This document shows, in pieces, positions 38,759-56,017 of a DNA stretch of 64,000 nucleotides. The notes beneath the pieces were generated by a model. The model saw nothing but the letters and a program-made list of their open reading frames with translations, had not been told where the DNA came from and did not search any database. The DNA lies in contig JAMCPI010000016.1 in assembly GCA_023379805.1 (NCBI GenBank), positions 8,514 to 72,513 of the forward strand, in the 5' to 3' direction. Position 1 is the stretch's first letter; each line of letters opens with the position of its first letter. This DNA is from Nitrososphaerota archaeon. Its GTDB lineage: Archaea > Thermoproteota > Nitrososphaeria > Nitrososphaerales > JACPRH01. The position numbers were made by a program, and so were the translations under genes.

Positions 38759-38817
38759 CTCTAAACCATTGCATATCATCAACAGCGACTAATATACGTC
38801 GATCATTGGTTTATCCG

Positions 38818-38934
38818 GTGAAGGTAGCAAGCCAGATTGCAAAGAGCAACGAAGCTGAGTTGACGTTACTGCACGTCTTGGTATTACCATGGGCTGCCTA
38901 TTCTGGAGACGTATCTTATCCTGTTAGGGTTTAG
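38818..38934 (+). pseudogene. possible relic of a universal-stress-protein (UspA-like) gene
   Basis: My own translation gives VKVASQIAKSNEAELTLLHVLVLPWAAYSGDVSYPVRV*. It resembles the ...A..lA...ga.l.llhV region of USPs but lacks the first strand and everything after about residue 40. Confidence 0.3.
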
Positions 38935-39000
38935 GTAACTCTTCGTTTGGTTTGTGTGAAAGAGGCGTGTTCTTGACCAGCCGATAAGTTACCTAAACCC
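38927..39000. repeat. 14-bp perfect inverted repeat (stem-loop) abutting repeat copy 2
   Basis: gggtttaggtaact (38927-38940) and agttacctaaaccc (38987-39000), separated by 46 nt. Confidence 0.8.
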
Positions 39001-39003
39001 AGA

Positions 39004-39138
39004 AACCAAAACAATCTTTTGAGTTTCGAAAATGTGGCGCTAATAACAATGGATACCTGAAAATGTATCGGGTATCCACCCTCATTTTTTCTTCTAAATT
39101 CCCACACCCATCAGTTTAAAGTTCATGGGCCAACCAGG
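39004..39138 (+). repeat. non-coding repeat family, copy 2
   Basis: aaccaaaacaatcttttgagtttcgaaaatgtggcgctaataac..., then hairpin 39051-39060/39068-39077 (ggatacctga/tcgggtatcc), a T-run, then ...cagtttaaagttcatgggccaac. Confidence 0.8.
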
Positions 39139-39439
39139 ATTGGCACTTAGCTAGGTTCTGATTTCGGATTTTTGCCTGGCAAACAGCAAACTGTTGACCA
39201 ACTATTAGTAACTAACAAGTCAACTTTAAGTGAAATGCCGAGGGCAGAATTTGGAACGGCAATTGCGTGCCGAGACACCAACGATAATCTTAGGTGGCAA
39301 GTGAATGGATGGGTGGGTGCAGGCATGTGGCTCCTGCACCCTGTAGGGAAAATACTGACCAGCTTGTCACCTGAGCCGCCACAACCCCCCCGCTCGGAAT
39401 CAATGCATTTGTGGAGCTAGCGTAATCGATTGATTTTTC

Positions 39440-39476
39440 CAATAAAATAGGGGAGACGATCCTTACAAGATCGTCT
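39440..39476 (-). terminator. hairpin plus T-rich tract downstream of PQQ-repeat gene 1
   Basis: On the minus strand, AGACGATC-ttgtaag-GATCGTCT is followed by cccctattttatt. A similar hairpin follows the paralog. Confidence 0.5.
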
Positions 39477-39485
39477 ATACATCTG

Positions 39486-41762
39486 TTACTTCTTCCGCAT
39501 CGCCAGTACTGCTGCGCCAATGATTGCGATGACAGCTATTCCGACTGCCGCATAAGTTACTTCTGAGGGTAGTCCTGTTGTCTGTGTTACTTGTGATGTT
39601 ACTGTTGAGGTTTGAGCTGGTTGTGTTGAGGTGATTGTGGTTGCTTTTGTGGCAGTGGTTACGCTTGTTGTCGCTGACGTGGTTGTTACTGTGGTTGTTG
39701 CGGTGGTGCTTGAAGTGGCTGTAGTCGTAGAGGTTGCAGTGGTGGTTGTGACTAATGTGGAGACCGATGTTGTAGTTACTGTTGAGGTGATTGCTTGGCC
39801 TGCCGGTTTGTCGGATAGTCCTATGGCCATTAGTGTGCCAGGGACTGTAGGTTGTCCACCTAGTCCGTATCTTGGGTCTCCTGCCGCTATTGCTTGTGGC
39901 CCGGTCATTAGGAATATTTTTGAGTCTCCTGCTGAGTCTTTGCCTATAGTTGTTCCGATTACTACTGGTGCACCGATATTCATTTCTCTGAGCATCTTAC
40001 CGTTGTCTTTGTCGAGGAACCTTACTTTGCCGTCTGTGAAGCCTGAGAAGACCATTCCTCCTGTGACGACGATAGCTGCTCTCTGATGACTGTAGCTGTA
40101 GAACCATGACCATTTCACTTTCCCTGTAGCTATGTCTCTAGCGACGATTGTCGAGTTCGCGATTGGATAGTTTCTTACAGTGAAGAGATTCCCGCCCTGA
40201 ATATAGGGACTCTCCAGCAGTACAGTTCTCTGTAGAGCATCTTCGTAGAGGATTATTGCCTGCCCGTCAGGATCGTAGGACATGTCTGTTGCGAAGATAC
40301 CATTGGTCCAAGCTGGATACACTTCAGCCGGTAATGTGTGGTGTTCTCCCTTTTCACCCGGTTTGGTGGCGGGCCAGCTTATCCAGTTCCATTCTCTCAT
40401 GTCGTGGTAGCTCTTAGGATCGGGCATGTATGTCCTGATGCCGTCGGGCGGAGGTTTAGCTGCAGCTGCGCCTACCTGTCCCCTAGCAACTTGGTCTGGT
40501 ATTACATCTACCTTGTACTTTGGCTTACCTGAAGCTGCATCCATTACGTAGAAGATGCCTTCCTTGCAGCCCTTCACGTAGACTTTGCCTAATGCCTTGC
40601 TGTCGATTAGCATGCCGCTCCAGTTACAGTCATAGTCATACGGATCATGTGGGAATGGCTGTAGCCACCAGACTCGTTTGCCCTGATTCAGGTCAATGGC
40701 CATTATAGTGCTACCGTAGAGTCTTGGTCCAGGTGCGAGAGACATGTTTGAGTATGGTCCTTGGTTGCCAGTGCTTGTGTATAGTATACCTGTATCCTCA
40801 TCTACTACTGGTTGGCCCCAGTTGGCTGTTACTCCAGCCCATTTGCTTATTGGCTCTCCTGGTAATCCCCAGTCCCATTCGAGTCCCTTCTGGTTCACAG
40901 CTGCTACTTCGCTGCACGGAACATCTCTGAAGTAGCCTATGCTGCATTCTTGCAGTGCCCAGTCTTTTACTGGAGTGTCATACGGTGGAGATTCGAAGAC
41001 TCGCCAGAGGACGTTGTAAGGTGGATCCATGCTGATGCCCATTGTGACGTGTCGGGCATCGGGTGCGGTGAGTGTGCTGTGCATCGTGCCGGGTAAGATG
41101 TAGATGAACATATGGCCTTTTTCATAAGTCATCAGGTTCGCTGAGTTAGCTAGACCCATGTTCCCCATGTATTGATACAGGTTACCAGGTATGTTTGCGC
41201 AGAGGTCGTTAACGCGGAACTTCTCCTTTCCGTTATTAGCGTCGATGCCGTAGAAGTCGCATGCAATACCATAATCCAGTATTGCATCTCCGCCTGCCCA
41301 GTATCTGATGCCGTGTGAATGAATAGGCATTGCTACTTTCACGGGTAGCCGCTTCTTCACTGCCTCTATGTCGATGGTGTAGTCATAGACCCATTGCTGT
41401 TTACCGGTCTTTGCGTCTACCGCGTATGTTCTCTTGTAATTAGTCATTACGTAGACTTTGCCGTTATGGACGATTGGTGGGGTGGACGATCCTTCTCCCG
41501 GGTTAGCTGCCTGCATACCTGCAGGTGCTAGTGACTTGCCTCCGATAGGGAAGATCCACTTTACTTCTAGATTGTTGACGTTGTCCTTGTTGATCTGTGT
41601 CTGTGGGCTGTAGTTCTGAGCCCATGAGTTACCGTTGACATTCTGCCAGTCTATGCCATCATTTGCTAGTGGTGCTGCGAATGCTAGTGTTGGTGTGAAT
41701 GTGCTGAATGCCAGTATTACAAGTATTATACAGTTAGTTATCCAATATTTGCTTGATAACAT
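39486..41762 (-). CDS. secreted PQQ-repeat beta-propeller (quinoprotein-dehydrogenase-like) protein with a Thr-rich stalk and C-terminal TM anchor
   Basis: 758 aa. Signal-like N-terminus, repeated A-x-D-x-x-T/S-G-K-x-x-W units (AVDAKTGKQQW, VMDAASGKPKY, ARDIATGKVKW, FLDKDNGKML), about 90 aa of T/S/A/V low complexity, then GLPSEVTYAAVGIAVIAIIGAAVLAMRKK. Confidence 0.8.
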   Translation of the reverse strand: MLSSKYWITNCIILVILAFSTFTPTLAFAAPLANDGIDWQNVNGNSWAQNYSPQTQINKDNVNNLEVKWIFPIGGKSLAPAGMQAANPGEGSSTPPIVHNGKVYVMTNYKRTYAVDAKTGKQQWVYDYTIDIEAVKKRLPVKVAMPIHSHGIRYWAGGDAILDYGIACDFYGIDANNGKEKFRVNDLCANIPGNLYQYMGNMGLANSANLMTYEKGHMFIYILPGTMHSTLTAPDARHVTMGISMDPPYNVLWRVFESPPYDTPVKDWALQECSIGYFRDVPCSEVAAVNQKGLEWDWGLPGEPISKWAGVTANWGQPVVDEDTGILYTSTGNQGPYSNMSLAPGPRLYGSTIMAIDLNQGKRVWWLQPFPHDPYDYDCNWSGMLIDSKALGKVYVKGCKEGIFYVMDAASGKPKYKVDVIPDQVARGQVGAAAAKPPPDGIRTYMPDPKSYHDMREWNWISWPATKPGEKGEHHTLPAEVYPAWTNGIFATDMSYDPDGQAIILYEDALQRTVLLESPYIQGGNLFTVRNYPIANSTIVARDIATGKVKWSWFYSYSHQRAAIVVTGGMVFSGFTDGKVRFLDKDNGKMLREMNIGAPVVIGTTIGKDSAGDSKIFLMTGPQAIAAGDPRYGLGGQPTVPGTLMAIGLSDKPAGQAITSTVTTTSVSTLVTTTTATSTTTATSSTTATTTVTTTSATTSVTTATKATTITSTQPAQTSTVTSQVTQTTGLPSEVTYAAVGIAVIAIIGAAVLAMRKK

Positions 41763-41899
41763 CTTCGAGCAACATATCTTCTAGTCAGATATAAGGTGGG
41801 GTAAGACGGTATCCATACGACCAATTGCTTGATCTAAAGAGGCATGCGCATCGAAATTACGGGCTAGTGAACTTAGGCAATTATTGAGATGATGGAATA

Positions 41900-41940
41900 A
41901 AAAAGAAGGGAGCGACGATCCTTGTTCAAGACCGTCCGCT
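41900..41940 (-). terminator. imperfect hairpin plus T-run downstream of PQQ-repeat gene 2
   Basis: On the minus strand, gcggacggtcttgaacaaggatcgtcgc is followed by tcccttctttttt. Confidence 0.4.
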
Positions 41941-41953
41941 ACCATTATTACTG

Positions 41954-43750
41954 CTACTTCTTTCGCATTACTAGTACTGCTGCTGCGGCAATAGCTATTA
42001 CAGCTACTCCGATTGCTGCGTAGGTTACTTCTGAGGGTAGTCCTGATGTTTCGGTTACTGATGAGACTACTGTGGTTGTTTGAGTTTGTGCCGGTTGTGT
42101 TGATGTTACTGTGGTGGTGGCTGTGGTTGCGGATGTGGTCGTCAGTACGGATGTGGCGATACTTGTGCTTGTCTGGGTGGTTGTCATAGTTGTTGTCTTT
42201 GCTTGGGAGCTTGCTCGTAGACCTATGCCAACTAACGCTCCACCTGGACTGGCAGTGCTTGGTTTTGCACCTGCATTGACAGCTACGACTATCATTGAGT
42301 TACCGGCGCTATCTTTGCCTACTGAAGGTCCTGTGGGTATTTGGGAGCCGAGATTGAGCTTGTATATCTGTTTGCCTGTGTCTTTATCGAGGAAGGCCAG
42401 GTTTCCATCGTAAGATACTATGACCATGCCGCCTGTGACTGGTCTTTGTGTTCCGCTCATGCGTCGCTCGGATCCGGGGAATGGGCCCCAGGTCCATTTG
42501 ACTTTACCAGTGAGGGCGTCTTGTGCGTAGAATGTGCCGTTTTCTGATGCGCCTGTTTTAACTATCATCCATGAGGCTTTTCCTTGAGATGAGGCTAATT
42601 CGAGATCCCAGGTTTTCATGTATTCTGGTGTTAGGTACGCAAAGGAGTAGATTGTGCCTGCCCCGTCGGTTGATGATTCTCCGACCATGCCGCTGTGACC
42701 TAAAGGTAGGAGGACATTATTTTTGTCACATTTTGCACAGTTTCTTCCCACATCGGTCATCTCCATTTTTCCTGCTCCTGCCCACGGTAGAGTAAGCATC
42801 TCTTTGAAGCCTTCCCAGTTACCTGTGACGTGGTTGTACGTTGGTAAGCGATCTTTGTCGAGAACTGGTGCGGGATCGTAAATTATGTTTGCTCTGAACT
42901 TTTCACCGTATAGCGAAGTGATTGGGTCAAATCTCCTCAAAGGTTTGCCTGTGGCAGCATCGATGTAATTCAGAATTCCGTCTTTGCACGCTTTTACTAG
43001 AGCCTTTCCAGTGGTTCCTAGTCCTGGAACTTCTATAAGCATGGGGGAGTAGAATCCACAGTCCATGTCGTATGGGTCGTGCGGATATTCTGAGACCCAC
43101 CACTTCATTTTACCCTTACTCAAGTCGAAGGCTACTAGGCTGCTGCCGTATAGATTTGGTCCTGGCCTAGAAGTGAGGTTTGAGTAGGGACTCTGGTTGC
43201 CGGTCGCTATGTACATTGTATCGGTGTCCTCGTCAATTATTGGCATACCCCAAGTTGCACTTACACCGTTGAGTTTGTGCGGAGGTTGTCCAGGTACTGC
43301 TTGCCAGTCGTATTCAAGCAGGGATTTGTCGCGCTGCGCCACTGTTTGACAAGGAGTGGTCACGAAGTAGCCAATATCACAGTTTTCTAGCGCCCAATCC
43401 TTGGTAGGCTTGTCCTGAGGTGGTTGTAAGAATACTCTCCAGACTATTTGCTTTGTATCCATATCCATGCCGCCAATCCAGTTTCTGAATGAGGAAAAGT
43501 CACCCTGTAGGCTGCCGTATAGACCCACGATGTACTGATTCCCTTTATCCCAAGTAGCTATTTCGGCTGTACCGATGCTTCCTATTAGTGCGTTAGGTGC
43601 CTGTTTGTAGATACTGCCAGGAACATTCAAACAGAGATCAGTGATCCTGAAATTCTCTTTACCTGTATCGGCGTTTATTGAGTAGAAGTCGCAAGCTATT
43701 CCACCTATCAGTATAGCGTTTCCTTTTTCCCAATATCGGAAGGGTTCTGT
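41954..43750 (-). pseudogene. 5'-truncated paralog of the PQQ-repeat beta-propeller protein
   Basis: The frame is open upstream of the track's TTG start. My translation reads *TEPFRYWEKGNAILIGGIACDFYSINADTGKENFRITDLCLNVPG..., which aligns with residues ~152 onward of the 758-aa neighbour (IRYWAGGDAILDYGIACDFYGIDANNGKEKFRVNDLCANIPG). The signal peptide and about 150 aa are missing. The in-frame stop (43751-43753) lies inside the transposon end. Confidence 0.7.
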
Positions 43751-43767
43751 CTAGTTAAGGTACATAG
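43743..43767 (+). repeat. left terminal inverted repeat of the transposon
   Basis: GGTTCTGTCTAGTTAAGGTACATAG. Imperfect pairing extends about 9 nt further outward. Confidence 0.85.
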
Positions 43768-43775
43768 TATAAATA
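43768..43775 (+). promoter_or_regulatory. TATA-box-like element for the S8 peptidase operon
   Basis: tataaata is centred about 32 nt upstream of the TTG start at 43803. This fits a (near-)leaderless archaeal transcript. Confidence 0.4.
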
Positions 43776-43802
43776 TGCGAGCATTTACAAAGCCTGTCAA
43801 GA

Positions 43803-45974
43803 TTGGGCATTAAATCCTCTAAACAAGATGATTTCATAATCGTATCTCCGCATCCAATTTCAGTTACAAGAGAGATAGTTGGAGGAGGCGCGCCCATACC
43901 TGATGATGAAAAGAAGAAAATCAGGGATGAGATTGATGGCAGGCACCTTGACAAAAAGATACATTCGACATCATCCGCGCTCAGGGATAAGGAACTTCAT
44001 GATGAAAGCAAAATCTATTTTATAGCTGAAACCACCCCAAAAGCCACTGCCTCGCAAATAGACTCTGCACTAACGACGCTCAAAGCTGAAGTTCACTCAC
44101 ATCTTGGTAAAGAACACAAGTTGCTACTGGTATCTGCGCCACAAATTACGCTTGACCACTACATCTTTAAGGGTCTGCCACTAGCAGTTAAGAAACCGTT
44201 TGTTGATTTTCGGCCTCTCGAGTTAAAGGAGCAAATCAGCGAAGATATTCTGGATGATAGCAATTGGACTAATGAAGCTAAACCTTTGGTAATACACCTA
44301 ATCCCTAACGTAGATACGCGCCGAACCGAGCGTTACTTTAAGGAATTGGCACAGTATTTTGAAACCAATAAGGTGCCGATACTCTGGAAAACACCGGTTG
44401 AGTACGGCGCACTAATAGTAGTAATGAATGGTAAAGTAGCTAAGAATCTACTAGAGCAGTCAAATTACATCTTTAAGATTCATCGCGTGCCTCGCGGTAT
44501 CCTCACGACTATACCTCGTGACGGTTCTGTGAAAATACCACGCATTAAAGCCAAGTCTTCATCTGTTGAATTAGCGCCCACTTCCTCTGCTAATGCATTA
44601 CCTGTTGTATGCGTGGCAGATAGTGGTGTGGATATAATACCAGCTCTTTCAGGCCATATTGTTGGACGAAAGAAATACCCTAATTTTGGTAGTCCAGATG
44701 ATGGCAGAGATCCAAGAGGCCATGGAACGCCAATTGCATGTCTTGTAGTTCATGGCGAATGTAATGGTTCTCCTAATGGGAACCCCAGAGCCAGAATAAT
44801 ATCGCATAAGATCTATTCGGATCAGAACAGGGACGATGCCCTTCAAGGGATGTTTGAAGCGATAAGAGAGAACTCATCGGAATCAAAAATATTCGTTTCG
44901 TCAGTAAACTTTGAAAACGCGGATCATGCTTTGCCAACTTTTGCTCTACTGGATAAAATAATTCAAGAGCGTAACATCTGTTTTGTGTCCAGTGCAGGCA
45001 ATATAGACGATGAATTGAAGGAGGTAATAGACCGATACCCAACATATATTCAGAATTACCATGTTCTTCACCCAGCTCAGAATGCACATGTCATAGGGGT
45101 AGGTTCGATTGCGAGAAAGGCGAATGCGGATTCGGTAGCGCGGCGTGGCGAGCTTTCGCCTTTTACTAGATGTGGCAAGACTCTTAAGAAGCTATACGAT
45201 GTTTGCAAGCCAGATATCGCAGAACACGGTGGTAACATCTGCCACAACTTTCACACAAGCGAGATAGGCGTATCCTCATTCTGTAAAAATGGTGACCCAT
45301 CTGATGACTTTGCGGGTACAAGCTTTTCAGCACCGCTTATAGCTGGGCGACTAGCCGAGATTGTAGCTAAGTATGGGCACCGTATAAGAAATGCTGAGAC
45401 GTTCAAGGCAGTCCTATTCATGTTCTGCGATAATCGCAATCTCGCATGCTGTGGACATGGCACGCCTCAACATACTCTTGGAGCAGAACCCGATAGCGCT
45501 GTTTTCGTATCAGAAGGGAATATTCGCCTCTCAGACCTTACCATAAAGGGTTCAGAAACCGAATACTGGGATGAAATAACTATCGGCGTTCCCAAGGGCG
45601 TTAGGGAACTCGAAATATGCTTGGTTCATTCCGATGATTATAACGGAATGAGCGAACCAAGCTTGGACACGTATCTTGAAGTCGAAGCTTGGAAAACTGG
45701 ACGAGAAAACTCTCCAGTTGATCCCACCTACGCATCCCCGCGAAAATCGTACGTTAGGTTTCTAAGCTGGAATTTCAAGACCCATAGTATGGAAGGTCAA
45801 TGGAGGCTTAAGATCATCCCACAAACAACAGAAATCATGAACCATCGCGAGAGAAAAGGCATTACAGTGAGGTATGGATGCGTAATCAAGCTGACATCCC
45901 GTAGCGCGATAACTACCACAACTTTGACAAATCTTGCTCAGCAACAAATGCGGAGATGGGGCTTAACCAGATGA
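43803..45974 (+). CDS. cytoplasmic S8-family (subtilisin-like) serine peptidase with an unknown ~260-aa N-terminal region and a ~170-aa C-terminal domain
   Basis: 723 aa. Catalytic triad contexts VVCVADSGVD (Asp), PRGHGTPIA (His), FAGTSFSAPLIAG (Ser), and oxyanion SSAGNID. No signal peptide or TM. The segment before the catalytic domain (ILWKTPVEYGALIVVMNGKVAKNLLEQSNYIFKIHRVP) looks like a subtilase I9-type prodomain. TTG start. Confidence 0.85.
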   Translation: MGIKSSKQDDFIIVSPHPISVTREIVGGGAPIPDDEKKKIRDEIDGRHLDKKIHSTSSALRDKELHDESKIYFIAETTPKATASQIDSALTTLKAEVHSHLGKEHKLLLVSAPQITLDHYIFKGLPLAVKKPFVDFRPLELKEQISEDILDDSNWTNEAKPLVIHLIPNVDTRRTERYFKELAQYFETNKVPILWKTPVEYGALIVVMNGKVAKNLLEQSNYIFKIHRVPRGILTTIPRDGSVKIPRIKAKSSSVELAPTSSANALPVVCVADSGVDIIPALSGHIVGRKKYPNFGSPDDGRDPRGHGTPIACLVVHGECNGSPNGNPRARIISHKIYSDQNRDDALQGMFEAIRENSSESKIFVSSVNFENADHALPTFALLDKIIQERNICFVSSAGNIDDELKEVIDRYPTYIQNYHVLHPAQNAHVIGVGSIARKANADSVARRGELSPFTRCGKTLKKLYDVCKPDIAEHGGNICHNFHTSEIGVSSFCKNGDPSDDFAGTSFSAPLIAGRLAEIVAKYGHRIRNAETFKAVLFMFCDNRNLACCGHGTPQHTLGAEPDSAVFVSEGNIRLSDLTIKGSETEYWDEITIGVPKGVRELEICLVHSDDYNGMSEPSLDTYLEVEAWKTGRENSPVDPTYASPRKSYVRFLSWNFKTHSMEGQWRLKIIPQTTEIMNHRERKGITVRYGCVIKLTSRSAITTTTLTNLAQQQMRRWGLTR

Positions 45975-46594
45975 TTAATTCGAATGATGTTCGTCCTTCA
46001 ACCAAGGTAGTAGGCCAATTTGAAGAGATCATAATTGCTCAACTGGTAAATCATTTCACGTCTCTTGGGTATAGTGCTATCCCCCATGCTAGATTCAACA
46101 TCGCTTGGGGCAGTATTCTTTCAGATCTAGATGTTTTGCTGATAAAAGGTAACTCACTAACCGTTATAGAAGTCAAATCTAAACACGACAATATAGCGCG
46201 TGCAAGACGCCAGTTAAGGGGGATTGCTGATTACATAGATTATGCATATGTTGCAACAGACAAGATACTAAAGCGATGGGATGAGCCTAAAGTAGGATTG
46301 CTATTTGTCGATAAGAAAGGCGTTAAGTTAGTAGTGCATGCTAAGCAATTTACGAGCAGACCCTCTGCTAGGTCTCTTGTGGCTCTACAAAAGAAGTGCC
46401 TCCTTCGCTTCTTAGGTTATAGAAACTACAATTACATGCGGAAATTCAACATAGCCGAGCAGATTAGAGGCGCAGGAGAGGCGAAATCGTTACGCCAATG
46501 TTTGAGTGAAGTAGTGGTTTGTGGCCAGCGCTGTGATTTAGACTGCCCTGTTTGGAACTTTATTGCCCAGAACTCTCAGAAACCCCAGAGCTAG
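45956..46594 (+). CDS. PD-(D/E)xK (restriction-endonuclease/Hjc-like fold) nuclease-like protein
   Basis: 212 aa. FEEIIIAQL (helix with Glu), SDLDVLLI (Asp) and VIEVKSK (E-x-K) appear in the canonical order and spacing. It overlaps the S8 gene. An alternative in-frame ATG at 45971 gives an ATGA start/stop overlap. Confidence 0.6.
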   Translation: MGLNQMINSNDVRPSTKVVGQFEEIIIAQLVNHFTSLGYSAIPHARFNIAWGSILSDLDVLLIKGNSLTVIEVKSKHDNIARARRQLRGIADYIDYAYVATDKILKRWDEPKVGLLFVDKKGVKLVVHAKQFTSRPSARSLVALQKKCLLRFLGYRNYNYMRKFNIAEQIRGAGEAKSLRQCLSEVVVCGQRCDLDCPVWNFIAQNSQKPQS

Positions 46595-46895
46595 ATTTCT
46601 GAATCTTACCCCTAATTCGCCGCTCCCATTCGTCGTACCCAACTACGCCTTTCTCTTCCAGAAGCTCGACTAATGAGGTTAACATAGTGTCGTGCATCCG
46701 TACCTCTTGCTTAACTTGATCAGTCTCGCTTGCGATGCCCTCAACTTTGAAAGAGGGTAGAAGGATGCCCTTATCGGATAGGTGAGCAATTACGATGTTT
46801 CGGATAACTTCTGAATCGCCATCGCCTAGCGTTCCTTTCAGCTCGTCTATGACCTTCCAAACGCCTTCTGGAAGTGATACTAGTGCGCGCCTCAT
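46560..46895 (-). CDS. ribbon-helix-helix (CopG-like) protein
   Basis: I place the start at the internal ATG (MRRALVSLPEGVWKVIDELKGTLGDGDSEVIRNIVIAHL is an RHH pattern). That ATG overlaps the transposase TGA as ATGA (46892-46895). The 3' end overlaps the convergent nuclease-like gene by 35 nt. Confidence 0.55.
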   Translation of the reverse strand: MRRALVSLPEGVWKVIDELKGTLGDGDSEVIRNIVIAHLSDKGILLPSFKVEGIASETDQVKQEVRMHDTMLTSLVELLEEKGVVGYDEWERRIRGKIQKSSSGVSESSGQ

Positions 46896-47782
46896 GCTCT
46901 CACCACTAACTCCATAGCGTGTCCCGCTATCTTTTCTTGCTTTGTCTTTTCGGTTGTGGCTAGTCTTATCAGGTTCTTCCACCCTTTCACTTCTATGCCT
47001 GCCGCTTGAGCTGGCGTCATCTTTATGCTTTGGTGTTCGCGGCAGAAGTTATAGTGAGTGACCCAGCCATCTAAGAGAGCTTGAGCGGTTGCCTTGCTCT
47101 TTAATCCTCTCATCGGCTTTGTTCTATCCTTAAGTGATCCGTGTAACCTCTCTACTATGTTGTTTGTCTCTCTCGCACGTATGCCTACACGCTTGACTAG
47201 CTCAGGCTGACTAACCTTGTTTGGATTACCGAAGGCAAACCTAAAGGCGTCATCGTAGGTGTTTGAGCCGTCCACAAAGATTGCGTTTGGTTGCGGGTTG
47301 CATCCTTCCTTAATACGCTTGAATTGCTGATATGTTTCGGCTAGGCTTCTACTGTTTGACAGGTATGATGCGACTAGAAAGCGGGTTTCCTCATCGATTG
47401 CCTCCCAGAACCACCTATTCGAGCCGTCAATCTTTACTACGGTTTCATCGTGGTGGATTTTGCCTGATACGGTGGGTGTTAAGGTTCTTGCGTATTCAGC
47501 TGCTAATGCGCTGAACTTCTGAACCCATATCCAGATTGTTCCCTGATTTACTTCTTCTCCTAAGATGTCTCTTAGCTGTCTCTGAACTTTGCGAACCGAT
47601 AATCCTTCAAAGTATAGGTTCATCGCGGCAACCACGATATGCTGGTTAACTCTCATTCGTGGTAATTCGTTTCCATTGTCAACAAAGTGGTGTCCACATT
47701 CTTTGCATAGGTAGCGCTGAAGGTTGCCCTTCATACCGTGCTTAACCACATCTGCGCTTTGGCAGAATTTGCAGGTCGCCAT
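46892..47782 (-). CDS. IS6-family DDE transposase with an N-terminal zinc-ribbon
   Basis: 296 aa. CKFCQS...QRYLCKECGHHF (zinc ribbon). DDE blocks HHDETVVKIDG...WFWEAID, IFVDGSNTYDDAF, ETNNIVERLHGSLKDRTKPMRGLKS, matching the IS6/IS26-type pattern (from memory). Confidence 0.85.
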   Translation of the reverse strand: MATCKFCQSADVVKHGMKGNLQRYLCKECGHHFVDNGNELPRMRVNQHIVVAAMNLYFEGLSVRKVQRQLRDILGEEVNQGTIWIWVQKFSALAAEYARTLTPTVSGKIHHDETVVKIDGSNRWFWEAIDEETRFLVASYLSNSRSLAETYQQFKRIKEGCNPQPNAIFVDGSNTYDDAFRFAFGNPNKVSQPELVKRVGIRARETNNIVERLHGSLKDRTKPMRGLKSKATAQALLDGWVTHYNFCREHQSIKMTPAQAAGIEVKGWKNLIRLATTEKTKQEKIAGHAMELVVRA

Positions 47783-47960
47783 CTTCTTCCCCGTATATCA
47801 GTTATATATCACACTATATATGTATATCTAAAGTATATTAAAAACATATCAGTGTTGCCGTAGGTGAATGTTGGTTCATTGATACATGGAACGGGATTCT
47901 TGATTTGAGCATCAGTATGGTATCGCATTTTTATACCAGCTCCGTTAAGGTCGAATAAAA

Positions 47961-49043
47961 TTGAAGAATCAACGGTTACAACGATATTACAGTAAAGTGA
48001 ATCCGCACATCCAGCCTTACAAATTTAGCACGGTCATAATTTACTTCTTGCTCATAGCCAATTTAGTAGCGGCCACGTTATGGTTACTCAAGTCTAACAA
48101 TGCGGTTGTTTCGATTGCGCCAACCGCTATACTATATCTTGCAGAGGCAAATGGAGTCGCGTTTGCCTTCGTCTTCTCTATCGGCATATACGTGATGAGA
48201 AGGTCTGACGAGATAATATCAGAAAGAATGCCCTTATTCGGATACTACACGATTTGTTACATCATCCTTTTCGTGGCAAGCATAGTCATGCCAATAATCG
48301 CCTCAACAGTTACCGAACTAATCCCTTTGGCTATTTCTCTAAGCGTAGTTTCGCTAGCTCTAATTCCATTCACGTTTGACAAATTCAGGTACAGACTTTC
48401 TCCTAGCTCAATACTCGGGTTCGTGTACAAGAATGCTAAGGAAAAAATCGCTTTGGGCGACTTAGATGGAGCTTGGAGTTACGCTGTAGAGATGGATAGA
48501 ATTGCAAAGGTCATTCATAATGACAATGTTGATCAGTTTGCCAATACTCTCGCGTTAATGCTGGTTGTTATGAACGATGGGGAAGTCGCGCTTAAGGACA
48601 AAAACCAAAAGGTGACCTTTCGTGGTGAGAACCATCCTCACTATTGGATTGACGTTTTCAGATTAAGGTTAACTTGGATTGGTCAGGTGGTGGTAGATGA
48701 TTTTCTTGCTTTTGAGAGGGTCTGCATTGAGGTTGTGGCTAATAAAAACTTCAAAACTTACAGATTCGCTCGCACCGAATACAACATGTCTTTAGTGACA
48801 ATTTGGATGTTGTGCCATTTTGCATTCAAAAGAGGATACACCGAAAGCGCTGAAAAAGCTCTACGTCTCGCTATCCGTGAAAGCGTCGCATCCATGGCGC
48901 TCCCATCATTTGCATTAACCGTACCTGAAGACGAATTCTTAGAATCTGTTGATGGACTTATGTTTTCAAATCCAGATTTAACCCCGCAACTTGTAGCGCT
49001 GAAAACTGACTTCCTTGCACTCAAAGAAAAGAAACAAGGTTAG
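47961..49043 (+). CDS. hypothetical membrane protein (4-5 N-terminal TM segments plus a ~210-aa soluble helical domain)
   Basis: 360 aa. AT-rich codon usage like the rest of the transposon. No family recognised. Confidence 0.55.
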   Translation: MKNQRLQRYYSKVNPHIQPYKFSTVIIYFLLIANLVAATLWLLKSNNAVVSIAPTAILYLAEANGVAFAFVFSIGIYVMRRSDEIISERMPLFGYYTICYIILFVASIVMPIIASTVTELIPLAISLSVVSLALIPFTFDKFRYRLSPSSILGFVYKNAKEKIALGDLDGAWSYAVEMDRIAKVIHNDNVDQFANTLALMLVVMNDGEVALKDKNQKVTFRGENHPHYWIDVFRLRLTWIGQVVVDDFLAFERVCIEVVANKNFKTYRFARTEYNMSLVTIWMLCHFAFKRGYTESAEKALRLAIRESVASMALPSFALTVPEDEFLESVDGLMFSNPDLTPQLVALKTDFLALKEKKQG

Positions 49044-49055
49044 AACCATTACGAT

Positions 49056-49080
49056 CTATGTACCTTAACTAGACAGAACC
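49056..49080 (-). repeat. right terminal inverted repeat of the transposon
   Basis: ctatgtaccttaactagacagaacc is the reverse complement of 43743-43767. Confidence 0.85.
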
Positions 49081-49088
49081 GTTTCCGA

Positions 49089-49104
49089 AAACCAAAACAA
49101 TCTT
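49089..49104 (+). repeat. partial third copy of the start of the non-coding repeat family
   Basis: aaaccaaaacaatctt matches the first ~15 nt of copies 1 and 2 only. It lies directly after the transposon end. Confidence 0.4.
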
Positions 49105-49158
49105 ATACGCCTATTTATTCTGGAAGTACAGCGAAAAAGTCAATATCAAGGTGATTAG

Positions 49159-49401
49159 ATGGAAACCAAATACACCGTCAAGATAACTACAAAGGACAAG
49201 CCTGCACGGATCTCAAAAGAGGTTCAAGAAGGCCTAAAGGGTGTTTTAAGCGCCAAGAAGGTACGTGAAATGAAGCTCGAATACGTAGACTGCCCAGTCC
49301 TTCAACGTGAAGCCCCCTTCCTTGAATGCTTCGTCTGCCCAAACCACATTCGACGGTACAAGGGCGAGGTTCACTGCGCCGGCAACCCACTACCTCAATA
49401 A
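49159..49401 (+). CDS. hypothetical small Cys-containing protein
   Basis: 80 aa. C-x12-C-x2-C-x12-C spacing. It overlaps antisense ORFs of similar size, so coding status is uncertain. Confidence 0.35.
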   Translation: METKYTVKITTKDKPARISKEVQEGLKGVLSAKKVREMKLEYVDCPVLQREAPFLECFVCPNHIRRYKGEVHCAGNPLPQ

Positions 49402-50231
49402 AGCCGTCCACAACGCAAAACACAAGCGCAGCCAGCCTCAAACGGCTCCTACCTTATATCTCCTCACGTCCACCGCTTGCTTCGCAGATGCCGCTTTTTG
49501 TTACCTTGCTACGCCCCATCTTCGACGCTGCGCAAGGTCAACCCGCATCTTCTGCTCATCCGAAAGATTCTCCCCACAGGACTTGTGATACGGACTCAAC
49601 CTGTTATTCTGATCCAAACGGTAAAGAACATCTTCCCGCTTCACATCCTTGCATTGACACATACAGAGACCCACCGCACAAATCATAATTAAACCGATCG
49701 GCTCACCGCAGACTCCCAACTATACCCAAAACTAACCAATAATCTTCACCATTCTACCAATTACATTTTAATTATCAATCAACAACTTTCAGCTCCGAAC
49801 GACCCTTCCACCATTTCTAACATACTAACAAAAGGAATCACTGGGATGTAGTCTTGCAAGCCGGCGTCATGGATCCTTGCAACTCATGCAGCAGTAGGTA
49901 CTCTACTTGATGCAAATCCAGTAATGCAACAACTGGTTTTCTACAGGCATTTCTATCCTTTTTAAACCTCCCCCCTCGGCCTATGGCAGCACTGGTGCCG
50001 GCGCACCAAGGCGTACTAGTTTAACCAAAAAAACATTACAAGTAATCAACCGCCTAAGGTCGATAAAGATATCGTTAACTCCACCTATCAAAGCTCAAGA
50101 AATGCCGCATCTATCCTATCTGGAAGATATGATCAGCGAGCTGGACTCCTTTCCTGCCTGCATCGCACCAATATGCGCAAAGCAATCTAAGCGTCTAAAG
50201 TCAAAAAATGTATGTGGATTCAATGGGGCGA

Positions 50232-50948
50232 GATGTTGTTAGGATAAGCCGTTGAGTAGCACCCAGTTGTAGGTGGCTGTGAATGCTTCTAGGAATATCG
50301 TTATGGATTGTATAGTTGAGCGGTAGGGGAAGTTGTTGTAGAAGCGTTTTAGCTTGGCCTTGAGGATGCCGAACCATCTTTCGATGCGGTTCCTCATACC
50401 AAAGGTTTCATGCCTGAACTAACTGGTCTCATGCCTATACTCTAGGCCAAGCCTCTTGAATGCTTCCGGATACCAAGGCCCCTTATCCACTAGGAACAAA
50501 GGCTTGTTGGCGCAGTACTGGAGAACCTGTTTGAGGAAGAGTTCAGAGTCGAGAATGCTTCTAGCAAAGCTGCATCTGACTGCTAGGATTTCCTTAGAAT
50601 CAACATCTCGGGCTGCCCAGATGAATATCTGCTGCCCAACCAGCTTAGTCTTGGTCTCATCCACAGCAACCGCTCTTCGACTCTTCTTCTCAGGCTCAGG
50701 GAAAGCCTTCCTCAACGCAATGAACGCATCCCTAACACTGACGTAAGAGATGCTTCCACCCATCATCTCAGAAGCCTTTCGATACGACAGGCCTGCAAAG
50801 CACAACATAGCAGCCAATACCTTGCTCTCAGCAGGAACCTTATTCCTCTGAAACACACCTGACTCCCTAACCCTACTAACCACCACCTCAAGAGCACACA
50901 TAGGATTACAATACGCACAGAACCGTAAAACCCTATCCTAACAACATC
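50232..50948. mobile_element. IS6-like insertion sequence (717 bp) with 14-bp perfect TIRs and an 8-bp target-site duplication
   Basis: TIRs are gatgttgttaggat (50232-50245) and atcctaacaacatc (50935-50948). The flanking direct repeat is tggggcga (50224-50231 and 50949-50956). Confidence 0.8.
50239..50901 (-). pseudogene. IS6-family DDE transposase interrupted by an in-frame TAG inside a 21-nt tandem duplication
   Basis: The track ORF ends ...GLEYRHETS*. The same frame continues FRHETFGMRNRIERWFGILKAKLKRFYNNFPYRSTIQSITIFLEAFTATYNWVLLNGLS* (my translation). DDE blocks are AVDETKTKL, LFLVDKGPWY, NRIERWF. The duplicated tcatgcct lies at 50408 and 50429. Confidence 0.8.
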
Positions 50949-51004
50949 TGGGGCGATGCCGAAATGCTTTTCGGTAACCACCAATTATCTCATCGAGATG
51001 CGAT

Positions 51005-51385
51005 TTGGCCCGCTGCCCCGAATGTGGAACAGAAAACCAGACACCTACTAGAACGTGGAGAGTGCTAGATGAACCGACGCAAGCCGGTCGTTTTACGGAG
51101 AGAAGCGTAGGTATCTTTCAATGCACCCGTTGCGGAGCAGTTTTTCCCCAAGTTGTGGGTCGACGACGTCTAGCCATCATCGATGCCGACGAGTATCTCA
51201 AGCTGCAGAAAGAACTGGAGAATCTTCGGGCTGAGAACGCGAAGCTAAGGGATGATGCGGACCTGGGTCATCTACAGACATCAGTAGAGGCCCTAGAAAA
51301 AGAGGTCTCAGCCCTCCAGAATGAGAAGAAGGAGCTTGAAGCCCGTCTTGCTCAAGGTAACGGAAGCTTAGACCAAGTTCCGTAG
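51005..51385 (+). CDS. zinc-ribbon plus coiled-coil protein
   Basis: 126 aa. CPECG...(25 aa)...CTRCG, then a heptad-rich tail (LQKELENLRAENAKLRDD...LEKEVSALQNEKKELEARL). TTG start. Confidence 0.5.
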   Translation: MARCPECGTENQTPTRTWRVLDEPTQAGRFTERSVGIFQCTRCGAVFPQVVGRRRLAIIDADEYLKLQKELENLRAENAKLRDDADLGHLQTSVEALEKEVSALQNEKKELEARLAQGNGSLDQVP

Positions 51386-51699
51386 CGAACTGGGGAGCTC
51401 TGACCCGTAGAAGGTACATTCTGCACAGGCTTAGTAGACTCGACTGCTTGAGCGGGCTTTTGCGCGGCTGGCTTCGCCTGCTGCTGCATCATCATCTGTT
51501 CTTCCAGCTTACCTTTCACGGTTCTTAGTTGAGCAACCTCATCTTCAAGCACCTTAGCTTTCTTTTCAAGGGTGGCCGTTGCAATCTGCTCCTTGATTCT
51601 AGCTACCTCCTGCTGCAGATTCATCTTCTCCTCTTCAAGCTTCTTGACTCTTGATTCTAACTCGACACGTCGACTAACAGGTTGAGGAGCATTTTCCAT
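51352..51699 (-). CDS. coiled-coil protein
   Basis: 115 aa. VELESRVKKLEEEKMNLQQEVARIKEQIATATLEKKAKVLEDEVAQLRTVKGKLEEQ, then a Q/A/P-rich tail. It converges on and overlaps the previous gene by 34 nt. Confidence 0.5.
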   Translation of the reverse strand: MENAPQPVSRRVELESRVKKLEEEKMNLQQEVARIKEQIATATLEKKAKVLEDEVAQLRTVKGKLEEQMMMQQQAKPAAQKPAQAVESTKPVQNVPSTGQSSPVRYGTWSKLPLP

Positions 51700-54132: not shown

Positions 54133-54249
54133 ACCCCAGAATATTTTGTCACCATATTTATTACTTTCTGAATAGCACAAACCCCAACAACAAAATCTCT
54201 AAAATCGCAGTGAAGACCACGCGCAGACACGCACTTTTTCAGCAAAGAT

Positions 54250-54420
54250 ACCATGGAGTCTACACTAAGAAACACCTAGTCTCGACGAATAATCCCTGAT
54301 AAAAAAACAATGGGTGAAAAGAAGCTGCTGGCTCAAGCATAATTTTCAAAATCACCCTACCATCTGATGACTACCCCCGCTCCATAGGCGACCATCAAAC
54401 TCGATATCAAACTTGATGTA
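54250..54420 (+). repeat. module A: accatggAgtct - gtctcgac - A7 - gctgct - GATATC-centred 26-bp palindrome
   Basis: ccatgg 54251, gtctcgac 54279, A-run 54301-54307, gctgct 54324, palindrome catcaaactcgatatcaaacttgatg 54393-54418. Confidence 0.7.
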
Positions 54421-55536
54421 TTCATTTTTCCTAAACCTTTTCCTACACCTCAACAAACCACTTCCACCCGCTAATTAGCGAAAGTCAACTACAACCTTAT
54501 TCTAGATAACACCAGCATTATCAATTCAACAAATAAGAAAAACGAACCAGCTGCTAACCGCAATACCATCTGTCTTTTTACAAAGTCACCAACGATGAAG
54601 ACTATGGCAACAAATCACTCCTAGAATCGTTTCAATAGCGATTAACCTAAGTCTCGATATACACATACTGTTTGTGTTACTCACCTGACTTAGAACCACT
54701 CCGCGCATTAACCCTATGAAATAATAGGTGTACCCTGCTAGCGGAGTAAAGAACGCCCAACTCACTTTACTCCGACCGTATTAAGCCCGTCTCAAGCATG
54801 CACCCAAAGTCAGCCCGCCTATTTTTTCAAGTTTTTTGGTCGACACCGCTTGTTACAACTTACATTCACTCGTATATGAATAGTAAGATTATACATACTT
54901 ATCATATGCTGTGATTTGACGCTTGTTTTGCTGCAGAATACTATCACTTGAAAACTGAACCTAGTGGCTCAGATCTCTATTGACCGCGAGTATAGCTGAA
55001 CTTCGCTTCTATAATCGGACGGGTGGATGTTGACTACCTGAAGTATTACTCGATCAGGGGTAAACTCTCCTTACTCGATGGCTGCGCGGTCGGTGTTATG
55101 TATAGGCGATCAGCGCCCTATCTGGTCCACAAATCACTTTGACGCAGTTTTCTGCTGGATGAGGGTTGTTTTTTTAATGCTGTTAGGTTTGGTCAGCTCC
55201 TTTGTTCTTGTTTAGTTAGTGTGCCGCCTTTTTTCGTCGGATCCTGTAGAATCGATAAGTCTGGTAGATCAAGGTGGTTTCCATTTTTTCAGGGTTGGTT
55301 TTTGGTCGTTGATGTAAAAGCATCATTGGCGGTATGGCAATATTTGTTTGGCATAGGATGGTGATTGCTTGCCGCTATTGCTAGCTAATGATGGTTTTCT
55401 ATACATAAGGGGTTTAGCGACTTTGGAAGTTCGTTGATGTTTTTGTATCAATATCATCTTCCTGCTTTACTTGAGCGGATTCGTGCACATGTGGGTTTTT
55501 TACGCGTAATTTGTTGGCTTCTTTTTACAGTGTGAC

Positions 55537-55712
55537 ACCATGGGGTCTTGGTTACAATTATGGCCGTCTCGACTGGTTGTTTTTTTGTTGTGGTTTACTG
55601 TTGCTGCTTGACGCGGTGGACTTTGCTTTTACAGGATGTCGCCTCTTGTCATATTTAGTGGTTGGATAGCTTGTAGTAGGTTTTGTCAAGTTTGATATCG
55701 AACTTGATGTTG
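55537..55712 (+). repeat. module B: accatggGgtct - gtctcgac - T7 - gctgct - GATATC-centred 26-bp palindrome
   Basis: ccatgg 55538, gtctcgac 55566, T-run 55580-55586, gctgct 55603, palindrome tgtcaagtttgatatcgaacttgatg 55684-55709. The anchors are in the same order as in module A with near-identical spacing. Confidence 0.7.
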
Positions 55713-55723
55713 GTATGTTGGGC

Positions 55724-56017
55724 TTAACGTATTATTGATATTGCAAAGGCGAGTAGAAGCAGCACCCATCCAACGATGAGGATAATCTTTATGATCTGTT
55801 TGCCTATTGAGACCAGTTCAAGGACTAAGTAGAACGCCGTCAGTGTGATGAGTAGTGTAATTGCATCTGAGTAGAGATTGGCGAGCTGAGGATCTGCTTT
55901 GAACACTGTTTCGTTGAGAATTGTTTGTAGAAACGTTCGAATTAGGTCATAGATTGTTCTTAGAAATGTCAGCAATAGTGTAAGTATGTCAGTTTGGGCT
56001 GTAAAAACTGGAAACAA
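55724..56017 (-). CDS. hypothetical small membrane protein
   Basis: 97 aa with 2-3 hydrophobic helices. Confidence 0.4.
   Translation of the reverse strand: MFPVFTAQTDILTLLLTFLRTIYDLIRTFLQTILNETVFKADPQLANLYSDAITLLITLTAFYLVLELVSIGKQIIKIILIVGWVLLLLAFAISIIR

Follow-up and report, generated by a model that had tools for sequence, protein, structure and literature searches.

The stretch of DNA analysed here (64,000 nucleotides of contig JAMCPI010000016.1, assembly GCA_023379805.1; hereafter the window) comes from a Nitrososphaerota archaeon and was placed in Nitrososphaerales by its TackOD1 gene and its best matches. Between the gene for an HTH-CBS protein and a 97-aa open reading frame (ORF) it carries a locus that, on the safest statement the sequences permit, is a cis-acting DNA element, neither a protein gene nor an RNA gene, consisting of a single-copy, clade-specific array of putative protein-binding palindromes. 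The array is kept at one chromosomal position in Nitrososphaeraceae-type archaea, and strand composition reverses at its centre. We tentatively propose the locus as a candidate chromosomal replication origin of an unusual kind, with chances that fall somewhat short of even. An origin would explain most among the readings considered below, i.e. the compositional asymmetry in three lineages, the symmetric layout round an AT-rich palindrome, the orientation independence and the unstable neighbourhood.

The original prediction, made from the letters of the window alone, had singled out a 1.5-kb ORF-free stretch as exceptional, and a survey of ORFs of at least 60 aa on both strands agreed: the largest gap of the window spans 54181-55723 (1543 bp), against 699 bp for the runner-up. 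The HTH-CBS gene (- strand) most likely starts with the ATG at 54135, a start with which the protein is also found in public assemblies, and the non-coding span is thus 54136-55723. We compared it with its counterparts in nine related lineages, which were obtained in three ways (from exact or similar HTH-CBS proteins, by one scan of genomes and by one pattern scan of metagenomes) and are listed here with their HTH-CBS identity to the window.

R1 (L003 with L048/L063): 98% in protein, 84% in DNA
L109: 83%
L110: 79%
L112/L113: 78%
L111: 76%
L004/L065: 74%
L092/L042/L087: 93% DNA identity to L004
L114/L115: 71%

All nine lineages have a gene-poor gap of 1.1-2.6 kb upstream of HTH-CBS, usually set between PGK-GAPDH-78aa and HTH-CBS-GalT, and the order PGK-GAPDH-78aa, segment, HTH-CBS-GalT is common to the family together with the relative orientations. 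It had been suggested that the anchor sequences be sought in related genomes; the element is indeed kept at this same syntenic place across the nine lineages, as a single copy per genome. No gap is present at the HTH-CBS orthologues L116 and L117 (60% and 56% identity), which have a different gene neighbourhood, or at the bathyarchaeial orthologues, and the element is therefore specific to one family-level clade. Assembly GCA_036514475.1 (L003 and L115) contains two HTH-CBS loci, 98% and 71% identical to the window and each with the conserved block called island 4 below; this metagenome-assembled genome is either a mix of two species or a genome able to hold two copies.

The locus is made up of the following parts (a strand is given where one applies).

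54136..55723: the non-coding locus in full, between the HTH-CBS start codon and the stop codon of the 97-aa ORF; each of the nine related lineages has a gene-poor gap in the corresponding place
54136..54246, - strand: HTH-CBS promoter region, with AATAAATAT, TATA-like, about 21 nt ahead of the ATG, and a ATTCAGAAAGTAAT element
54247..54261: P1-A, a CCATGG-centred palindrome about 117 nt upstream of the HTH-CBS ATG
54262..54392: module A interior, A/C-rich, A7 at 54301; partial conservation is limited to TGATAAAAAAACAATGG, and the sequence is unlike the module B interior
54393..54419: P2-A, GATATC-centred, two adjacent ATC-N6-GAT 12-mers; kept in R1, L109, L004, L111 and L114
54420..54858: left spacer, C/A-rich on the + strand, with T6+T6 at 54822-54837 at its end
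54859..54917: P3, an AT-rich imperfect palindrome (TATATGAATAGTAAGATTATACATACTTATCATATG) where GC and AT skew change sign
54918..55243: right spacer, G/T-rich on the + strand, poorly alignable with R1
55297..55462: island 4 core, about 150 bp conserved without gaps, holding P4a and P4b
55309-55326: P4a, TTGATGTAAAAGCATCAT
55434-55451: P4b, TTGATGTTTTTGTATCAA
55534..55548: P1-B, the second CCATGG palindrome and the point of a cassette insertion in R1
55549..55685: module B interior, T/G-rich, T7 at 55580; retained in R1 past the cassette in diverged form
55686..55710: P2-B, GATATC-centred and near-perfect, 14 nt past the 97-aa ORF's stop codon

The anchors of the two repeated modules first noticed in the sequence were all found in place by a coordinate check in the window: ACCATGGRGTCT at 54250 and 55537, GTCTCGAC at 54279 and 55566, A7 at 54301 versus T7 at 55580, GCTGCT at 54324 and 55603, and GATATC at 54403 and 55694, i.e. 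152 and 156 nt from CCATGG. The whole modules align with z = 4.8, but the likeness is confined to the anchors, the interiors alone giving z = -0.4, and the supposed complement relation between an A/C-rich module A and a T/G-rich module B dissolved into composition only (z = -0.85, not significant). The GATATC palindromes (23-26 bp) are unique in the window, where shuffled sequences lead one to expect none, and the two copies match at 92% as inverted repeats and at 84% as direct repeats. Half-sites of the TTGATGT type had been said to recur, and TTGATG/CATCAA does occur 5 times against about 1.5 expected; the copies turned out to be the half-sites of P2 and P4. A large decayed palindrome, with the left half of the locus the reverse complement of the right half, was rejected (z = 1.2, not significant).

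The palindromes fall into four classes. P1 has the family consensus TTACCCCATGGGGTAA, often with a T-run and an A-run on its flanks, and about 40 bp of symmetry in all; a copy stands at either end of the segment in all relatives but L114, for which only the gene-proximal copy was found. P2-B is identical in R1, and L109 has an equivalent second copy. P3 is 85% identical to R1, and its AGTAAGATTA core is present in L004, L109, L110 and L111. Island 4 occurs in all nine lineages and aligns without any gap, with ATATTTGTTT, RTGATRG and ATACATAAGGG as invariant motifs; its P4 pair (TGATR-N6-YATCA palindromes) is spaced by exactly 125 bp in every genome, in a segment whose GC content ranges from 19 to 42%. 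The P4 pattern is absent from 106 unrelated fetched loci and from the rest of the window, and neither P1 nor P4 motifs occur anywhere else in its 64 kb.

Conservation follows these sites, and the short islands to which it is confined are nearly all palindromic. The window and R1 are alignable in islands only, namely from the HTH-CBS promoter through P1-A, at P2-A, at the centre (54859-54917), in a 300-bp block (55244-55546) ending in P1-B, and from P2-B onwards; the left spacer cannot be aligned. Between the close pair L004 and L092, the inter-island stretches show 8-10 differences per 100 nt, while the neighbouring genes show 1-3 and the 100-nt windows with P2, P3 and island 4 show 1-4. As the differences concentrate between the islands, function should reside in discrete short sites with drifting spacers, and the spacers evolve about neutrally. 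Within the palindromes of the islands, the half-sites are invariant while their spacers or loops are free to vary, a pattern of invariant stems and variable loops that points to protein-binding DNA rather than to RNA hairpins. P1, P2, P3 and the P4 pair could thus be binding sites for dimeric proteins.

The block from P2 through P3 to island 4 is found in two orientations relative to the flanking genes, one in the window, R1, L109 and L110 and the other in L004, L111, L112/L113 and L114. Since L109 and L111 are sisters (neighbour-joining of HTH-CBS plus GalT, 83.5% bootstrap) with opposite block orientations, at least two inversions are needed. Judging from these arrangements, the element appears to work in either orientation.

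A switch from C/A-rich to G/T-rich composition, also part of the original prediction, was borne out as real and abrupt: the GC and AT skews each pass through zero near 54,850-54,950, the left half having a GC skew of -0.35 and an AT skew of +0.13 and the right half +0.18 and -0.31. Such strong skew in freely evolving spacers should be the trace of a mutational asymmetry. Skew was also measured at the four-fold degenerate sites of genes and expressed on the + strand (GC4 and AT4), with the following values.

1-38.8 kb: GC4 -0.18 to -0.24, AT4 +0.13 to +0.22, both gene strands alike
51.8-54.2 kb, adjoining the locus: GC4 -0.55 to -0.69, AT4 +0.51 to +0.68, both gene strands alike
55.7-57.6 kb: GC4 about 0 to +0.14, AT4 about -0.49, both gene strands alike
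57.6-64 kb: GC4 +0.13 to +0.36, AT4 -0.06 to -0.25, both gene strands alike

Two genes past the right window end keep the sign of the skew. The flanks of the locus in R1 show the same negative-to-positive change on both sides, as do those of L109 and, more weakly, L111, and within the segments of R1 and L109 the switch falls close to the P3 of each. A compositional switch of origin polarity at P3 was seen in spacers and at four-fold sites, within the 64-kb window, and was repeated at the loci of R1, L109 and L111. A recent inversion breakpoint is not the cause of the flip, because flanking gene order and orientation are shared with the relatives. The cumulative GC skew reaches a minimum at the locus, the + strand being C/A-rich before it and G/T-rich after it; under the established general deamination model, this polarity would be that of an origin. 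Over 1-38.8 kb, the asymmetry belongs to the chromosome strand and shows no visible influence of the direction in which genes are transcribed, an unusual situation in an archaeon.

If the locus is an origin, the strands would separate in or close to the AT-rich palindrome P3, from which forks would move off both ways, the + strand being the G/T-rich 'leading' strand on the right and C/A-rich on the left. Recognition or loading sites for an initiator encoded elsewhere would be provided by P1, P2 and the rigidly spaced island 4. We infer from the patterns above that replication may be the cause of the asymmetry, that the binding protein may be such an initiator and that initiation may take place at the locus. 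A more specific version, i.e. a Nitrososphaeraceae-specific origin without a linked initiator gene, read via P1, P2 and the rigid 141-bp double-palindrome island 4 and having a core that can be flipped, is more doubtful than the general proposal.

The known archaeal oriC regions with origin recognition boxes (ORBs), such as Pyrococcus oriC, Sulfolobus oriC1 and oriC2 and haloarchaeal oriC1, resemble the locus in their long intergenic region, the repeats on both sides of a short AT-rich centre, the single copy, the conserved position, the switch of origin polarity and a neighbourhood prone to insertion and inversion. Such insertions and inversions are typical of archaeal origin neighbourhoods (PMC4010727). 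The locus differs in that no orc1/cdc6 or whiP gene was found adjacent to it, in having four palindrome classes instead of ORBs or mini-ORBs, and in that conservation is best in island 4, which is not AT-rich and is 430-560 bp away from the switch point. Its P1 pair and P2 pair flank P3, with the P4 pair on one side; these palindromes are unlike ORBs, and the reviews give no thaumarchaeal ORB sequence. A precedent for an origin without classic ORBs is Sulfolobus oriC3, an archaeal origin whose recognition elements are neither ORBs nor mini-ORBs (PMC4010727), although oriC3 adjoins its own initiator gene, whiP, and none was found beside the locus. N. evergladensis has three orc1/cdc6 genes (PMC4084955), which makes multiple origins plausible in Nitrososphaeraceae. 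The literature searched contained no mapped origin for Nitrososphaerales. The host group, soil ammonia-oxidising archaea, is ecologically important, and the locus is a precisely delimited, family-conserved candidate in relatives of Nitrososphaera. To our knowledge, Nitrosopumilus maritimus is the only thaumarchaeon with mapped replication origins. If the proposal holds, the locus would represent a new replicator architecture for archaea, a variant composed of palindromes with no initiator gene linked to it, and soil ammonia oxidisers would have their first defined origin. Even if it is no origin, four palindrome classes and a gap-free, exactly spaced core in a segment that tolerates inversion and attracts insertions would make an unusual cis element.

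Several observations weigh against an origin. The original prediction had already remarked that no orc1/cdc6 gene is adjacent, which held among the ORFs scanned: Pfam searches of the flanking genes and most of the larger window ORFs, rather than of every gene, revealed no orc1/cdc6, whiP or initiator-like gene, within a reach of 54 kb leftward and about 11 kb rightward (a 15.6-kb contig adds 2.4 kb past the window), and the gene tables of the relatives' loci contain no initiator gene. An initiator gene is the typical neighbour of an archaeal origin (PMC4010727), and the Nitrosopumilus origin that has been mapped has cdc6 next to it, along with ORB repeats, as stated in PMC5797428. The repeats of the locus are perfect palindromes and bear no resemblance to ORBs or mini-ORBs. 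The AT-rich centre foreseen in the sequence does exist, GC content at the locus being lowest in P3 (0.24 over 50 bp at 54853), but it is short, and several ordinary promoter or intergenic regions in the window are equally or more AT-rich. The original origin idea is partly supported: single-copy synteny, palindromic islands and a skew flip at the AT-rich centre speak for it, while neither an initiator gene among the ORFs scanned nor ORB-type repeats were found.

Further objections concern the skew itself. Archaeal skews often do not track replication (PMC12999951). The asymmetry is far stronger within about 3 kb of the locus, which a simple replichore-wide bias does not predict, and the low-GC relatives L112, L004 and L114 have no skew switch. 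Genes converge on the locus (27 on the + and 18 on the - strand to the left, 3 and 6 to the right), the reverse of co-orientation with forks leaving an origin. Moreover, when a single switch is fitted to gene-level GC4 across the whole window, a position of about 37-40 kb is preferred to one at 54.9 kb; this fit is confounded, because an accessory block at 39.4-51.5 kb has reversed or mixed skew.

The skew of the accessory block (39400-51500) suggests a recent insertion or rearrangement. The block contains an IS240-type DDE transposase (46892-47782), a subtilase, two PQQ-dehydrogenase-like genes and, at its right end, a transposase fragment (50419-50901). A second non-coding stretch of about 730 bp (38759-39485; 413 bp without an ORF of at least 60 aa), close to where the window-scale switch fits best, separates a glycosyltransferase gene from a PQQ-dehydrogenase-like gene and has no Rfam match.

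Divergent transcription from P3 could produce the same skew polarity as an origin. The right half carries T7 at 55169 and T6 at 55229 in the right spacer and six more T5-7 runs rightward up to 55586, all on the + strand and none on the - strand; given these eight runs, rightward transcripts should stop well before the flanking genes. The main rival of an origin is regulatory, namely a transcriptional control hub. Island 4 would then contain back-to-back promoters, each having a TATA-like box (AAACAAATAT for the - strand, TATACATAA for the + strand) and a P4 operator at its start site; P1 would be an operator for HTH-CBS and, in some genomes, for GalT, P2 and P3 would be further operators, and the output would be either regulated expression of the flanking genes or short non-functional transcripts. 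We consider such a hub rather unlikely. The island 4 motifs do resemble the ATAAATAT/TTTAAA boxes upstream of window genes and lie 15-26 nt from the P4 palindromes, P1 precedes the HTH-CBS ATG by 95-117 nt in most relatives (the exception, L111, has about 870 nt), a third P1 precedes GalT by 115 nt in L004, the cassette of R1 is oriented for reading from island 4, and the AT-richness of the centre is typical of promoters. However, the segment seems to work whichever way it faces and whether 0.2 or 1.2 kb separates it from HTH-CBS, no regulon is visible in the 64 kb where P1 and P4 are confined to the locus, HTH-CBS orthologues outside the family manage without the segment, the T5-7 runs would stop rightward archaeal transcripts, and a hub leaves unexplained why four-fold-site skew flips in flanking genes of either strand.

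Known archaeal operators offer a partial parallel. In Thermococcales, the TGM motif TATCAC-N5-GTGATA of divergent promoter-operator palindromes is bound by TrmBL1. The locus is similar in having paired TGATA/TATCA half-sites near TATA-like boxes, beside the gluconeogenic genes PGK and GAPDH, but its half-sites are reversed (TGATA-N6-TATCA), the motif is unique to the locus and its orientation to the neighbours is not fixed.

The HTH-CBS promoter region is near-identical in R1 and alignable with L004, and its TATA box resembles the promoters of other genes in the window. Next to this TATA box lies ATTCAGAAAGTAAT (window 54150-54184). At the same promoter place, the bathyarchaeial orthologues (L005-L013) have ATTCC-N5-GGAAT or TATTC-N7-GAATA palindromes, of the ATTC-N7-GAAT type. 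Comparison of these promoters suggests that ATTCAGAAAGTAAT and the ATTC-N7-GAAT-type sites are probably the HTH-CBS regulator's own operator. P1 was rejected for this role, as the bathyarchaeial orthologues lack P1 and have the ATTC-N7-GAAT-type sites at their promoter instead.

An origin would sit easily in an unstable neighbourhood, and the rearrangements at the locus centre on P1. The segment found in both orientations has P1 repeats at both ends, as in invertons. In R1, a 1.1-kb cassette of two genes, one a 55-aa RHH-like ORF and the other a 312-aa winged-helix ORF, has entered precisely at the P1-B edge, after ACCATGGAGT: the order there is ACCATGGAGT, cassette, CTTGGTTATAATT, while the window passes from ACCATGGGGT directly to CTTGGTTACAATT, bases that resume right past the cassette of R1. 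L004 has a third full P1 (T8-CACG-TTTACCCCATGGGATAAAC; L004 7735-7780) upstream of its GalT-like gene, at another rearrangement junction. As the inversions, the cassette and this junction are all at P1, P1 is a recurrent breakpoint. Neighbouring gene blocks are inverted or replaced among the relatives, and the TackOD1-KaiC block beside the segment is inverted or missing in some of them.

The cassette lies at 407-1527 in L048, and in another strain, L063, its second gene is itself split by a GC-rich insert of about 350 nt (630-975; reverse complement in both). The third P1 of L004 adjoins a homologue of the window's 76-aa gene, which in the window lies across the locus.

Such events might mark a site-specific recombination locus, with P1 and/or P4 as targets of a tyrosine-type recombinase in a dif-like site, an invertible switch or an integration hot spot. 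This we regard as improbable. Bacterial invertons and Xer/dif systems share with the locus bounding repeats that can pair in inverted orientation, the occurrence of both orientations among lineages and insertion exactly at a repeat edge, and P4 has the arm, 6-bp spacer, arm layout of recombinase core sites (dif layout from PMC2958812). A dif site, however, is a unique 11-6-11 bp site at the terminus, whereas P4 has arms of 5-7 bp and occurs twice, and the skew polarity at the locus is opposite to that of a terminus. The segment measures about 0.9-2.6 kb and has several internal conserved sites. No recombinase or integrase gene lies next to the locus in the window or in any relative, orientation is fixed within each lineage at the contig level, near-identical contigs all agreeing and no polymorphism within a population being seen, and the cassette of R1 has no duplicated P1 at its far end. 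Thaumarchaea are, moreover, reported to be without XerA (PMC2958812), and the palindrome copies are both direct and inverted repeats, so that rare ordinary recombination could yield the same events.

The remaining alternatives are a gene product and mobile DNA. Six-frame ORF analysis, including the reassignment of any single stop codon, revealed no hidden coding sequence, and the longest stop-to-stop peptides of the locus have no Pfam match; a small conserved ORF in island 4 was rejected, every frame there having stops in several genomes and variability showing no 3-periodicity. No tRNA was found at the locus. The Rfam search that the original prediction had called for gave no family at the gathering threshold in the window or in the loci of eight relatives, and relaxed thresholds gave only weak C/D-box-type matches at chance level.

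One or more non-coding RNA genes, either a long C/A-rich or G/U-rich RNA per half or a small RNA from island 4, are very improbable. In both halves A exceeds T on the strand pointing to the centre, as for sense strands in much of the genome, the - strand has no T-run between 55723 and 54542, which would permit a long leftward transcript, and sliding-window folding gave mild z-scores of -2.4 to -3.0 for the + strand at 54580-54980; this last stretch, though, is not conserved in R1. RNAalifold gave -6.5 kcal/mol for island 4 with a covariation term near 0 and the invariant palindromes as sole helices; with ten sequences, the two strands gave about -2.4 and -0.8 kcal/mol and no consensus structure. 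These results contradict the pair of convergent structured RNAs that had been suggested. The near-neutral spacers, which cannot be aligned between species 84% identical in coding DNA, and the 1.1-kb insertion tolerated inside module B also argue against an RNA.

The last alternative, a decayed non-autonomous mobile element or neutral leftover DNA, is largely refuted and has hardly any probability left. P2-A and P2-B, 92% complementary and 1.3 kb apart, can be read as terminal inverted repeats, and IS240-type transposase genes are 3-8 kb away. Against this, the locus is single-copy at the same syntenic position in nine lineages with HTH-CBS proteins down to 71% identical, its islands are under constraint, and plasmid and phage collections contain no similar DNA; the suggestion of a decayed element thus failed on synteny and on the missing matches. 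Miniature inverted-repeat transposable elements would be expected to leave dispersed copies and target-site duplications, and we found no dispersed copies in the window and no duplication flanking the P2 sites. Nothing like the array appeared in the curated RNA or mobile-element resources searched. P1 was also considered as a viral sequence and rejected, its exact 16-bp palindrome occurring 6 times in viral contigs, roughly the number estimated for chance.

Just beyond the locus, within the 97-aa ORF (55724-56017), which has no Pfam match, a weak match to the Rfam C/D-box family sR2 was found in antisense at 55841-55891 on the + strand (21.5 bits, gathering threshold 42), with a GTGATGA box and two CTGA boxes. 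The ORF call at 55724-56017 may be worth a second look.

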